Positions 3,482-4,629 of a stretch of 64,000 bases of DNA are shown here, in pieces. A program made the position numbers and the translations under genes. The notes beneath the pieces are model-generated. The model was not told where the DNA came from, did no database searches, and worked only from the letters and a program-made list of their open reading frames with translations. Location of the stretch: positions 32,150-96,149 of the forward strand of contig JAZDJQ010000001.1 of assembly GCA_043803765.1 (NCBI GenBank). Reading direction: 5' to 3'. Source of the DNA: Candidatus Iainarchaeum sp. GTDB taxonomy: Archaea; Iainarchaeota; Iainarchaeia; Iainarchaeales; VGJJ01. Within the stretch, counting starts at the first letter, position 1, and every line of letters begins with the position of its first letter.

Positions 3482-4081
3482 ATGGTTAAAGCATACTATA
3501 TTCAATACAAATTTATCCTACCAGAAGCAATTAAACATTCAACGTATACATACCAAAAGCTCTTTCGGGCAATTTATGGTTATACTCAAAATGTGACTAA
3601 ATCAAATGGTAAAGTTTATCATTATCACCGAAAAGGGGTATTTTCAGACGTACCCTACATTCGTCCCGGAAAGAATGCAATTATTATTCACCCATCTTCT
3701 TTTCCTAAATTTAAGCAATTTTGTGCTACTGGACAGAATCCTTCCCATAATTGGCGTTCTAAAGGGGATTGGAAGGCTGTTTATTATATGGATGAAAAAG
3801 AAATCGATGACACAAAAGTGGTGAGGGCATTAGAAGACCTTTTAGATCGAACCTATATTTCTCCAAACGAAAAAACACCCCAACCCATTACAGAAGGATT
3901 GAGCACAATCTTGGACAAAATCAAACTAAACGAAACGATTGAAGAAAGAGAAAAGCAGCACGTTTTGAATGAATCCCAATCGGTTCTTTCCAACGAGTGG
4001 TTTCGTTCTCATTACACCCACTCTCAAAAATTAACTGATTTTAATGATAAAGTGAAATCACTGCGTGGGTTTCATAGTTGA
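3482..4081 (+). CDS. Hypothetical protein, possible Cas2/VapD-like N-terminal fold
   Basis: ATG at 3482 with GGGGG SD; LFRAIYGY..K.YHY.RKG...VPYIRPG.NAIII pattern. Confidence 0.7.
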   Translation: MVKAYYIQYKFILPEAIKHSTYTYQKLFRAIYGYTQNVTKSNGKVYHYHRKGVFSDVPYIRPGKNAIIIHPSSFPKFKQFCATGQNPSHNWRSKGDWKAVYYMDEKEIDDTKVVRALEDLLDRTYISPNEKTPQPITEGLSTILDKIKLNETIEEREKQHVLNESQSVLSNEWFRSHYTHSQKLTDFNDKVKSLRGFHS

Positions 4082-4531
4082 TTCTGCCTCGATTTCCTCT
4101 TCTATCAATTCTTTCACCGACACGATAAGATTCTTCTTTCTCCACTTCATTTTTCCCCCCACCATATTCGCTTCCAACAACCCCGAATCAACCAGTGTTT
4201 TGAGGTAGGGGTATAAGCTTCGTTCATTTTGATAAGTAATCCCAAATAACTCATTCACGCGACGTAATATTTCTTCCATACTCACCCACTCTTCATAATC
4301 TAAGACTTTGGTGATGTGGTGTGCTTGTGTTCCTTCTTTGAATGTTAAATGATCCCACAGATTGACTACTCGATACCTGTTGGTAGTCGTCAAAGGGGTC
4401 AATCGTTCACTTCCCCTAGTTAATGAATTTTTTCTTGCTATTTCTCTAAACTCATTTGTCTGATTGTCTTCTGCCCATCGTTGAATGCTGCTAACCGACC
4501 TAAAGAAGCTTCTAAGCAACATCTTCAACAT
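4058..4531 (-). CDS. Winged-helix DNA-binding protein
   Basis: VSMEEILRRVNELFG..ERSLYPYLKTLVDSGLLEA..GGKMKWR is an HTH plus wing. Confidence 0.75.
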   Translation of the reverse strand: MLKMLLRSFFRSVSSIQRWAEDNQTNEFREIARKNSLTRGSERLTPLTTTNRYRVVNLWDHLTFKEGTQAHHITKVLDYEEWVSMEEILRRVNELFGITYQNERSLYPYLKTLVDSGLLEANMVGGKMKWRKKNLIVSVKELIEEEIEAESTMKPTQ

Positions 4532-4629
4532 GGTAATTACCGTAATGATAGTAATTACTTAAAAACCTTATGGTAATTACTAGTAATTACCAAAAACCCA
4601 CAAAAAACAAAAACAATTGTGGTAATTAC
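4531..4629. repeat. Five GTAATTAC palindromes, including a perfect 22-bp palindrome at 4571-4592
   Basis: Copies start at 4533, 4551, 4573, 4583 and 4622; they flank the minus-strand TTTTAA box of the wHTH gene. Confidence 0.85.

Follow-up and report, generated by a model that had tools for sequence, protein, structure and literature searches.

A winged-helix protein and a single clustered box array in its own promoter at a probable replication origin of Candidatus Iainarchaeum

The genome of Candidatus Iainarchaeum sp. (here G000; GenBank assembly GCA_043803765.1, 1,022,810 bp in 19 contigs, 93.5% complete) encodes an orphan winged helix-turn-helix (wHTH) protein of 157 residues, and the promoter of its gene carries five copies of an 8-bp palindrome, GTAATTAC. 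Both lie in the 64,000-bp stretch that was analyzed, hereafter the window (positions 32150 to 96149 of contig C1), with the gene at 4058 to 4531 on the minus strand and the array directly upstream of its start codon. The gene belongs to a conserved block in which aTrm56, TFE, tRNA-Met(CAU), a long intergenic region and the wHTH gene are followed, in convergent orientation, by a gene of no assigned family (unk204), a PRC-barrel gene and xerA. The protein has a winged-helix (wH) fold, the protein-site pair is genome-unique and conserved together in relatives, and the locus sits at a discontinuity in strand skew. We think it somewhat better than an even bet that the wHTH protein represses its own gene and serves as an accessory factor bound to this locus, itself a probable replication origin.

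The box array in the wHTH promoter

Exact matches to GTAATTAC begin at 4533, 4551, 4573, 4583, and 4622 and occur nowhere else in the 64 kb. The five boxes span 97 bp, the window as a whole was expected to contain 0.71 ± 0.87, and none of 100 dinucleotide shuffles reached five matches. Two of the boxes, 10 bp apart, are contained in TGGTAATTACTAGTAATTACCA, a perfect 22-bp palindrome at 4571 to 4592. An earlier reading of the window made from its letters and open reading frames (ORFs), here the sequence-only reading, had picked out these boxes and the palindrome, had placed the nearest box 2 nucleotides upstream of the wHTH ATG, and had described the boxes as bracketing a TATA box; the description was confirmed.

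Across the whole of G000 there are nine copies of GTAATTAC, five of them at the wHTH locus, and the total falls within the 5.7 to 11.5 expected under Markov models of order 1 to 6. Avoidance of the box elsewhere in the genome had been suggested by a mononucleotide estimate made by hand and was rejected, as the Markov models disagree. The other four copies are solitary and lack TGG/CCA flanks. When a cluster was defined as at least three sites, each with at most one mismatch, within 120 bp, the wHTH locus was the sole cluster both in G000 and in G182, a closed genome of the same genus (1,048,949 bp). Box pairs away from the locus were at the chance level (3 versus 2.5 expected in G000 and 1 versus 1.5 expected in G182), and a search of the two genomes for a regulon found no second cluster and no pair above chance.

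How the boxes are arranged on the promoter is clearest in the sense of the gene. A distal box at -98 (4622 to 4629), its spacing constant within the genus, is followed 39 bp on by the palindrome, which occupies -61 to -40 with boxes at -59 and -49, lies in the position upstream of the TFB recognition element (BRE), and is invariant in five of five relatives. Then come a TATA-like TTTTTAA at -34 to -28 (4559 to 4565, minus strand), which is invariant in alignment A1 and presumably serves as the promoter; a box at -27 (4551 to 4558), which abuts the downstream edge of the TATA element in a junction, TTTTTAAGTAATTAC or TTTATAAGTAATTAC, that is kept across families; and a sixth, degenerate box at -18 (4542 to 4549), which reads GTAATGAT on the plus strand and ATCATTAC in the sense of the gene. 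The degenerate box is 9 bp from both neighbors and is invariant in the six aligned sequences. The last box, at -9 to -2 (4533 to 4540), lies over the transcription and translation start next to the ATG (4529 to 4531), and is exact in some species of the genus and ATCATTAC in others.

Neighboring sites are thus 9, 10, 19 to 22, or 39 bp apart, spacings that would put adjacent sites on approximately the same face of the helix. Together the boxes cover the region upstream of the BRE, the downstream edge of the TATA element, and the start. No Shine-Dalgarno sequence precedes the wHTH ATG, and the distance from TATA to ATG suggests that the mRNA is leaderless or nearly so. The layout resembles the classic anatomy of an archaeal repressor, in which assembly of the pre-initiation complex would be blocked.

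An orphan protein conserved with its boxes

The wHTH protein could be assigned to no established family. An AlphaFold model built on a 43-sequence alignment had a mean predicted local distance difference test score (pLDDT) of 74 and a core above 90. It consists of a low-confidence N-terminal helix (residues 2 to 22), a disordered linker (23 to 50), a wH domain (52 to 141, pLDDT above 90), and a disordered acidic tail, with no ligand-binding or second domain. The PadR family (PF03551) matched residues 87 to 125, over the recognition helix, at 19.3 bits (E = 1.2e-3), below the Pfam gathering cut-off of 27; an NCBIfam search returned no match, and no sequence relative has a solved structure. By fold, the closest entries were PadR 5dym_A (Z 9.0, root mean square deviation 2.1 Å over 67 residues), Fur 2xig (Z 8.8), histone H5 (Z 8.5), and RosR 6ez1 (Z 8.5, 27% identity), and because these scores are tied within 1 Z unit the match to PadR is not discriminating. 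The best Foldseek match had an E value of 1.6e-3, and the ESM Atlas offered only generic small archaeal HTH look-alikes (0.91, fewer than 170 shared features), which are a lead only. PadR proteins have an N-terminal wHTH followed by one or more C-terminal dimerization helices, whereas the wH domain of the model sits C-terminal. Initiators of the WhiP or Cdt1-like type are marked by Cdt1 homology and tandem winged helices. No Cdt1-type match appeared in Pfam, PDB-sequence, or fold searches, although an unlisted family could still escape them, and neither Pfam nor the model gave an AAA+ domain, a Cdc6_C domain, or a second wH. We conclude that the protein is an orphan family with a generic wH fold and is outside any ordinary metabolic regulator family.

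The N-terminal segment is conserved in character rather than in sequence. In 34 of 43 members it has a hydrophobic moment above 0.5, and its net charge, which ranges from -2 to +5, is positive in 41 of 43, such that a cationic amphipathic helix is maintained while the residues vary. A SepF-like ORF in G000 starts with MGFLDRVF, a kind of segment that targets membranes, and the wHTH helix resembles both that start and membrane-targeting helices. It also fits a degenerate PCNA-interaction pattern.

The family appears to be specific to a single order. A set of 5.8 billion proteins contained 87 homologs, all from Diapherotrites or archaeal metagenome-assembled genomes, and 1.84 billion proteins contained 39 cluster representatives, with almost nothing between E values of 1e-9 and 1e-3. 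Of the 196 genomes of the order, 160 have the gene as a single copy, as do all 55 of the high-quality ones. Five genomes of sister orders gave no convincing match, the nearest being 24 residues at an E value of 0.003, and no kin detectable by hidden Markov model were found beyond the order either there or among the 1.84 billion proteins.

Where the gene occurs, the boxes occur with it. All 30 loci compared, drawn from at least five families of the order, had at least one exact box within -400 to +10 of the start codon. The 27 intergenic regions used for box positions held one to five exact boxes (median, 4), and one box abutted the TATA element in every region compared. Positions differ between families, being -98/-59/-49/-27/-9 in the genus of the window and -113/-103/-84/-62/-21 in another family, in which the 10-bp pair recurs at -113/-103. 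In 23 of the 27 regions no exact box was farther than 165 bp from the start codon, and the exceptions reached -215, -342, and -435. Moreover, the wHTH proteins of five GTDB relatives are only 64 to 73% identical to that of the window, yet the 80 bp upstream of the ATG is almost invariant. Co-conservation of gene and boxes thus indicates that the protein-site pair is probably ancient and cognate. A separate observation concerns G029, a closed genome of 24% GC, which at C1:770,056-770,901 has nine exact GTAATTAC boxes around the wHTH gene, six of them 180 to 400 bp upstream and three at the 3' end, a wider array than in the genus of the window.

Strand skew, gene block, and the origin question

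The wHTH locus coincides with a switch in strand composition. AT skew in the window falls from about +0.15 to +0.25 to about -0.3 at 4 to 5 kb, and the cumulative AT skew of the contig is maximal at window position 4878, on a plateau that spans 3950 to 4950. Right of the switch, the coding strands of plus-strand genes (for an ABC ATPase, MacB/FtsX permeases, and HSP20) are T-rich and those of minus-strand genes A-rich. Skew at fourfold-degenerate sites in G182 has the same sign for plus- and minus-strand genes and is thus independent of gene orientation, so the bias is not a coding-strand effect. In that closed chromosome the largest jump of origin polarity, in AT and GC skew alike, lies at 164 to 166.5 kb with windows of 10, 20, 40, and 50 kb; the wHTH gene is at 165,310 to 165,765, and cdc6, at 245,971, is without a skew discontinuity.

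Other relatives show the same polarity with varying precision. It is present at the locus in G001/G192 (a 220-kb contig), the cumulative AT maximum is less than 1 kb from the wHTH gene in G096 and G086 and 6 kb from it in G029, and the pattern is looser in G135, G166, and G018. Polarity is unaffected by reverse complementation, so what is informative is the presence of the origin sign in all nine genomes (G182 and eight others, some weak) and of the terminus sign in none. Archaeal origins are recognized by an abrupt skew change of origin polarity and by an adjacent initiator gene. The locus has the former but lacks the latter, as cdc6 is on another contig in G000 and is 80 kb off in G182, 140 kb off in G086, and 47 kb off in G029. 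We infer that the conserved block marks the most probable replication origin, which would be unlinked to cdc6.

We note that the strand bias itself is very strong, with AT skews of ±0.2 to 0.4 over tens of kilobases in positive, negative, and approximately zero domains of the window, the G000 contigs, and G182. Orientation-independent AT skew at fourfold sites of G182 ranges from about -0.1 to +0.45 and does not even out over the chromosome as a whole, a hint of strongly asymmetric replication.

The Orc1/Cdc6 protein of G000 has 435 residues and is encoded at C13:3903-5210 on the minus strand, divergent across a 54-bp spacer from a 121-residue ORF (C13:5265-5630, plus strand) that is SepF-like by eye. 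G000 cdc6 has neither a large intergenic region nor a set of repeats next to it. The cumulative AT maximum of C13 is at 3878, which is the 3' end of cdc6, but the contig offers just 3.9 kb to the left. At C10:5174-5335, within a 371-residue frame, is a second match of the Cdc6_C type, a weak one that at 19.8 bits falls short of the cut-off, and a similar one is at G182:5198-5332. Finally, two PCNA_N-type matches lie 1.4 kb apart at C8:9635-9964 and C8:11013-11291, the first being a PCNA ORF of 249 residues.

The block around the wHTH gene is conserved across families. TFE was retained in 27 of the 30 loci, unk204 in 27, the PRC-barrel gene in 24, and tRNA-Met in 26 of 28; xerA was present in 14 of the 30, which extend only about 1.5 kb past the wHTH gene. 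On the upstream side, all on the minus strand, are tRNA-Met(CAU) (4864 to 4934), TFE (5051 to 5590), and aTrm56 (5624 to 6139), the last two identified by Pfam matches and synteny. On the other side and on the plus strand, unk204 (3467 to 4081, with a likely start at ATG 3482) converges on the wHTH gene and overlaps its 3' end by 24 bp. The 435 homologs of unk204 are all from Diapherotrites or other archaea; unk204 is better conserved than the wHTH protein and always convergent with its gene. The unk204 model (pLDDT 90) has a ferredoxin-like N-domain and a helical C-domain, and a fold search found no convincing PDB match (best Foldseek E value, 2e-2; best VIA-align Z, 7.8, for parts only). Next are the PRC-barrel gene (3045 to 3374; Pfam PRC, 27.9 bits against a cut-off of 21.2) and xerA, encoding a tyrosine recombinase (2003 to 2887; NCBIfam recomb_XerA_Arch, 272.6 bits against a cut-off of 220, and Pfam). 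An integrase-like XerA, low GC, and a tRNA had suggested a mobile element integrated at tRNA-Met. Synteny of the block across families rules out such an element, and the recombinase is the XerA equivalog.

The intergenic region from the tRNA to the wHTH ATG (4532 to 4863) is 332 bp long, which places it in the top 29 by length of the 1129 gaps without ORFs in G000 (median, 36 bp), and the corresponding spacers of relatives measure 267 to 519 bp. Its distal, box-free part (4630 to 4863) contains two invariant TTAAC elements (4637 to 4641 and 4721 to 4725) and three islands of the type C(T/C)CA(T/C)T on the plus strand (4664 to 4671, 4757 to 4763, and 4810 to 4817), as seen in alignments A1 and A4 and by 6-mer enrichment. 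The islands occur 51 times in the sense and 5 times in the antisense orientation over the 27 regions, and the sense strand is only 9.8% G. Each TTAAC has, 25 to 36 nucleotides away, a conserved plus-strand island of the form ATG(A/G)G(G/C), a geometry like that of antisense promoters with leaderless starts. Small ORFs beginning at the ATGAG-type islands were rejected, as the sequence past the islands is not conserved in either alignment. No structured RNA was detected in the region: Rfam gave only the tRNA and one chance-level match, and RNAalifold gave 0 pairs with eight sequences of the genus.

Repeats resembling the origin recognition box (ORB) of archaea lie within the block. The motif is (ATTA)GTGGAAGTGTGGGG(GG), with GGAAGTGTGGGGGG as its 14-mer and ATTAGTGGAAGTGTGGGG as its extended form. 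Copies of the 14-mer with at most two mismatches in G000 were at window positions 2920 (minus), 3461 (plus), and 7598 (plus), with one on C9 and seven weak ones. Motif search placed element A, GGAAGTGTCGGGGC, on the minus strand at 2920 to 2933 and element B, GGAAGTGTGGGGGG, on the plus strand at 3461 to 3474; B extends to TAGTGGAAGTGTGGGG at 3457 to 3472 and is 8 nucleotides upstream of the unk204 ATG. The two form an inverted pair on either side of the PRC-barrel gene, 0.6 to 1.6 kb from the wHTH gene, and the same pair is found in G182, G001, and G086. With at most one mismatch, the 12-mer was present in 22 of 30 loci and the 16-mer in 84 of 201 genomes of the phylum, compared with 3 of 201 for a reversed control. 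Genomes with the 16-mer usually have one or two copies, most of which lie no farther than about 2 kb from the wHTH gene. No ORB-like copy was seen beside cdc6 in the regions examined. The euryarchaeal ORB consensus, given as GTTCCAGTGGAAAC-AAA----GGGGG in PMC1868953, has the AGTGGAA core and a G-string in common with the motif as published there. Element B and most copies in relatives carry the AGTGGAA core; element A of this genus does not. The copies at G202 10331, window 7598 to 7611, and C9:5985 are inside coding sequence, may be partly coincidental, and were not counted as origin elements.

The sister-order genome G202 has a 395-bp intergenic region (C70:6613-7007) with four AGTGGAA repeats in the order plus, minus, minus, plus, one of which reads TTTTCAGTGGAAAA, near the ORB core as published. 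It is 2 kb from the PRC and unk204 homologs and about 1 kb from a change of sign in AT skew, and it has neither a wHTH homolog nor boxes. We regard it as a candidate canonical origin. Because G202 has the repeats without the wHTH protein or its boxes, the ORB-like repeats rather than the GTAATTAC boxes may be the older origin-linked elements, which we offer as a lead.

Directly after the xerA stop codon, and 10 bp before element A, is a palindrome, TTATGTATT-N5-AATACATAA (2888 to 2910), with perfect 9-bp arms and a 5-bp spacer; its arms are partly conserved in three relatives. As described in PMC2958812, a Xer/dif site has two 11-bp inverted arms and a 6-bp spacer and is unique and conserved, a form from which the palindrome departs. 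It is possibly a dif-like or terminator element, and its identity as dif is a lead only.

What the wHTH protein may do at its locus

How the wHTH protein acts is best approached from its promoter. We propose that wHTH dimers would occupy the GTAATTAC boxes, phased at about 10 bp, over the region upstream of the BRE, the downstream edge of the TATA element, and the start site. Occupancy would block TBP, TFB, and RNA polymerase, and the gene would thereby repress itself; both binding and repression we infer, and autorepression is the step best supported by the anatomy of the boxes. The array would be the only clustered target of the protein in the genome, and it lies inside the block that marks the most probable origin. 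Origin recognition is more plausibly the task of Orc1/Cdc6 at the nearby ORB-like inverted repeats, and the wHTH protein may instead be an accessory factor, regulatory or architectural, that is bound at the locus and perhaps acts by way of its conserved, amphipathic N-terminal helix. Some reason must be found for a repressor that has no other target, and the most economical is a function at its own address, regulating or organizing the origin region. A bolder form of the proposal, in which the protein is an order-specific origin-landmark factor whose helix tethers this one spot to the membrane, or else to a partner in the replisome or in division, we consider rather unlikely.

These results in part support what the sequence-only reading had made of the locus. 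It had taken the protein and the boxes for a cognate pair at the skew switch; the pair recurs in 30 of 30 loci with a promoter far better conserved than the coding sequence, as a cognate pair would, and the origin polarity is genuine and conserved in relatives. That the protein falls in no ordinary metabolic regulator family, with a PadR score below the cut-off, no NCBIfam match, and no solved relative, likewise agrees with it. Its two functional proposals fared less well. An alternative initiator is not supported, given a protein with one wH, the presence of Orc1/Cdc6 and nearby ORB-like repeats, the operator-like layout, and G202, which has no homolog. A partition factor is neither favored nor refuted: a palindrome lies upstream of the gene, as in AspA, but no parB or parA partners are linked. 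Simple autorepression, which the sequence-only reading had held as the conservative alternative, is the one that the anatomy supports best.

Might the protein be simply an autoregulated transcription factor, responsive to a ligand or to stress, with a regulon of single or degenerate boxes that escaped the search and a position at the skew switch that is incidental synteny with TFE, tRNA-Met, and Trm56? The operator-over-promoter anatomy and the promoter-proximal boxes (within 165 bp in 23 of 27 regions) fit this, and the nearest matches in sequence and fold are transcription regulators (PadR-like at E 1.2e-3; PadR, Fur, RosR, and MarR-type folds; and small archaeal HTH look-alikes). Like the autorepressors PadR, Fur, and RosR, the protein has the wH fold (Z 8.5 to 9.0), a weak similarity to the PadR profile, and palindromic operators over its own promoter. 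Unlike them, its model is without a C-terminal dimerization helix or metal-binding domain and has an extra N-terminal amphipathic helix and disordered linker, and no regulon was detectable. Indeed, neither the 93%-complete genome nor the closed one has a second cluster or an above-chance pair, box totals are at the Markov expectation, the model has no ligand-binding or second domain, and an order-wide single copy in a fixed neighborhood is unusual for a condition-specific regulator. We consider this explanation possible but clearly less likely than the accessory factor. A second alternative is that the protein is a centromere or anchor protein, like AspA or RacA, that nucleates on the 22-bp palindrome, spreads, and uses its amphipathic N-terminal helix to attach the region of the origin to a partner or to the membrane. 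There is one site cluster per chromosome and it is origin-proximal, the N terminus is cationic and amphipathic in 34 of 43 members and resembles the start of the SepF-like ORF, and boxes extend to -215, -342, and -435 in some families and number nine around the gene in G029. AspA of Sulfolobus pNOB8, as described in PMC5120986, recognizes a palindrome of 23 bp that lies upstream of aspA, and spreads, and the wHTH protein is likewise predicted to be a small, dimeric, site-specific wHTH with a palindrome of 22 to 23 bp just upstream of its own gene and may extend along DNA. However, aspA heads an aspA-parB-parA operon, whereas the wHTH gene is monocistronic and convergent with the unrelated unk204, and no par genes were found in the 30 loci, nor any ParA-, ParB-, or SegA-type gene linked to it. 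No sequence relationship was detected, and AspA is plasmid-borne where the wHTH protein is chromosomal and universal in its order. Even so, in anatomy the locus comes nearest to AspA and to those autoregulated initiator or terminator genes that lie next to their sites. That the helix binds a membrane or a partner is putative, and the array is about 100 bp long and centered on the promoter in most families, all of which makes the centromere or anchor explanation improbable.

That the wHTH protein is itself the replication initiator is unlikely. On such an account, modeled on WhiP, the boxes would be origin recognition elements and the protein would recruit MCM. The gene does adjoin the sharpest jump of origin polarity while cdc6 is unlinked, and multiple phased sites lie beside a long conserved intergenic region. 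Moreover, the three Sulfolobus origins are defined by different initiation factors, according to PMC3607249, and UBP, the ucm-binding protein required for oriC1 in Sulfolobus, is described in PMC12141716 as a non-Orc origin-binding protein that contacts MCM. UBP thus gives a precedent in which a small, sequence-specific protein other than Orc acts inside an archaeal origin, but it has more than 300 genomic sites and is a general nucleoid protein, compared with one cluster per genome here. Pairing of replicator and initiator is reviewed in PMC4010727. In the arrangements of dnaA with DnaA boxes and of orc1 with ORBs, a gene next to the origin is autoregulated through sites close to that origin, and they share with the wHTH locus a DNA-binding gene beside a skew-predicted origin and several of its own sites in its own promoter. 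The wHTH protein, however, is a single 90-residue wH without an ATPase (AAA+) domain or a second wH, the genome retains Orc1/Cdc6 with its gene elsewhere, separate ORB-like repeats are nearby, the boxes overlap the TATA element and start site like operators rather than flanking an unwinding element, and G202 has an origin-like region (four AGTGGAA in 395 bp) without a homolog or boxes. We give this account very little weight. No more credible is a factor of the terminus or dif region that acts as a roadblock to forks or to SMC. RTP of Bacillus subtilis is a small wH dimer that is encoded beside its own clustered Ter sites at the terminus and is autoregulated by them, and the wHTH gene likewise adjoins a cluster of its own sites at a landmark of replication, with xerA 1.2 kb away in the conserved block and a dif-like palindrome at the xerA stop. 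In addition, TrmBL2 sets an SMC boundary at dif in Thermococcus, as reported in PMC11840125, and dif adjoins xerA in Sulfolobus by the account in PMC2958812. RTP acts at the terminus, however, and the polarity here is that of an origin: the top strand turns G- and T-rich to the right of the locus in every genome examined, which is the origin pattern under the usual rule. That rule appears valid in the order, as the cumulative GC minimum of G029 (280 kb examined) is about 19 kb from cdc6, and 123 genes to the right of the locus in G182 are on the plus strand versus 69 on the minus strand, as expected downstream of an origin. The palindrome at xerA is also 9+5+9 rather than 11+6+11 and only partly conserved, and a role at the terminus is accordingly highly improbable.

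Several observations weigh against an accessory factor at an origin, the reading that we prefer. The skew pattern is unlike that of a textbook symmetric, bidirectional origin: the cumulative skews of G182 never return (AT +34,422 and GC -24,189 at the end), and the two strands therefore differ genome-wide, and the arm on the side downstream of wHTH is short, about 35 kb in G182 and 12 kb in G000. The AT maximum of G018 is 13 kb from the wHTH gene; its gene block is intact, and it does not separate the wHTH gene from the ORB-like repeats. The GC-skew minimum of G029 is closer to cdc6 and is about 30 to 50 kb from the wHTH gene, and in another Diapherotrite the skew-predicted origin adjoins cdc6, as reported in PMC5905446. 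Among the ORB-like repeats, the spacing from core to G-string differs from the consensus as published, copy B may double as the Shine-Dalgarno region of unk204, and other copies are inside coding sequence that reads G-S-V-G-G. In archaeal origins, inverted ORBs or mini-ORBs flank an AT-rich unwinding element; the inverted pair here, GGAAGTG(T)GGGG, encloses the PRC-barrel gene, with no such element between its members in this genus. Finally, a repressor of itself alone has no evident purpose, and the accessory part of the proposal is an argument from exclusion.

What is new is an orphan family of wHTH proteins whose target, unusually, is one address only, at a probable origin unlinked to cdc6. 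Origins and segregation are essentially unstudied in DPANN archaea, which are not yet grown alone, and the locus provides a concrete, conserved address in which a probable origin meets ORB-like repeats, XerA, the order-wide proteins unk204 and PRC-barrel, and an orphan DNA-binding protein that has no other recognizable target. With an 8-bp palindrome in just five phased copies, the pair of protein and site is compact and clearly delimited and thus lends itself to direct tests in vitro. Should the protein do no more than repress itself, it would be a tidy example of a new wHTH family. Were the landmark proposal true, the protein would be a minimal device for anchoring or segregating the origin without ParA or ParB in tiny DPANN cells. 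Ultimately, if the wHTH protein organizes or tethers the origin, it would represent a new and minimal way of handling origins in reduced archaeal genomes.

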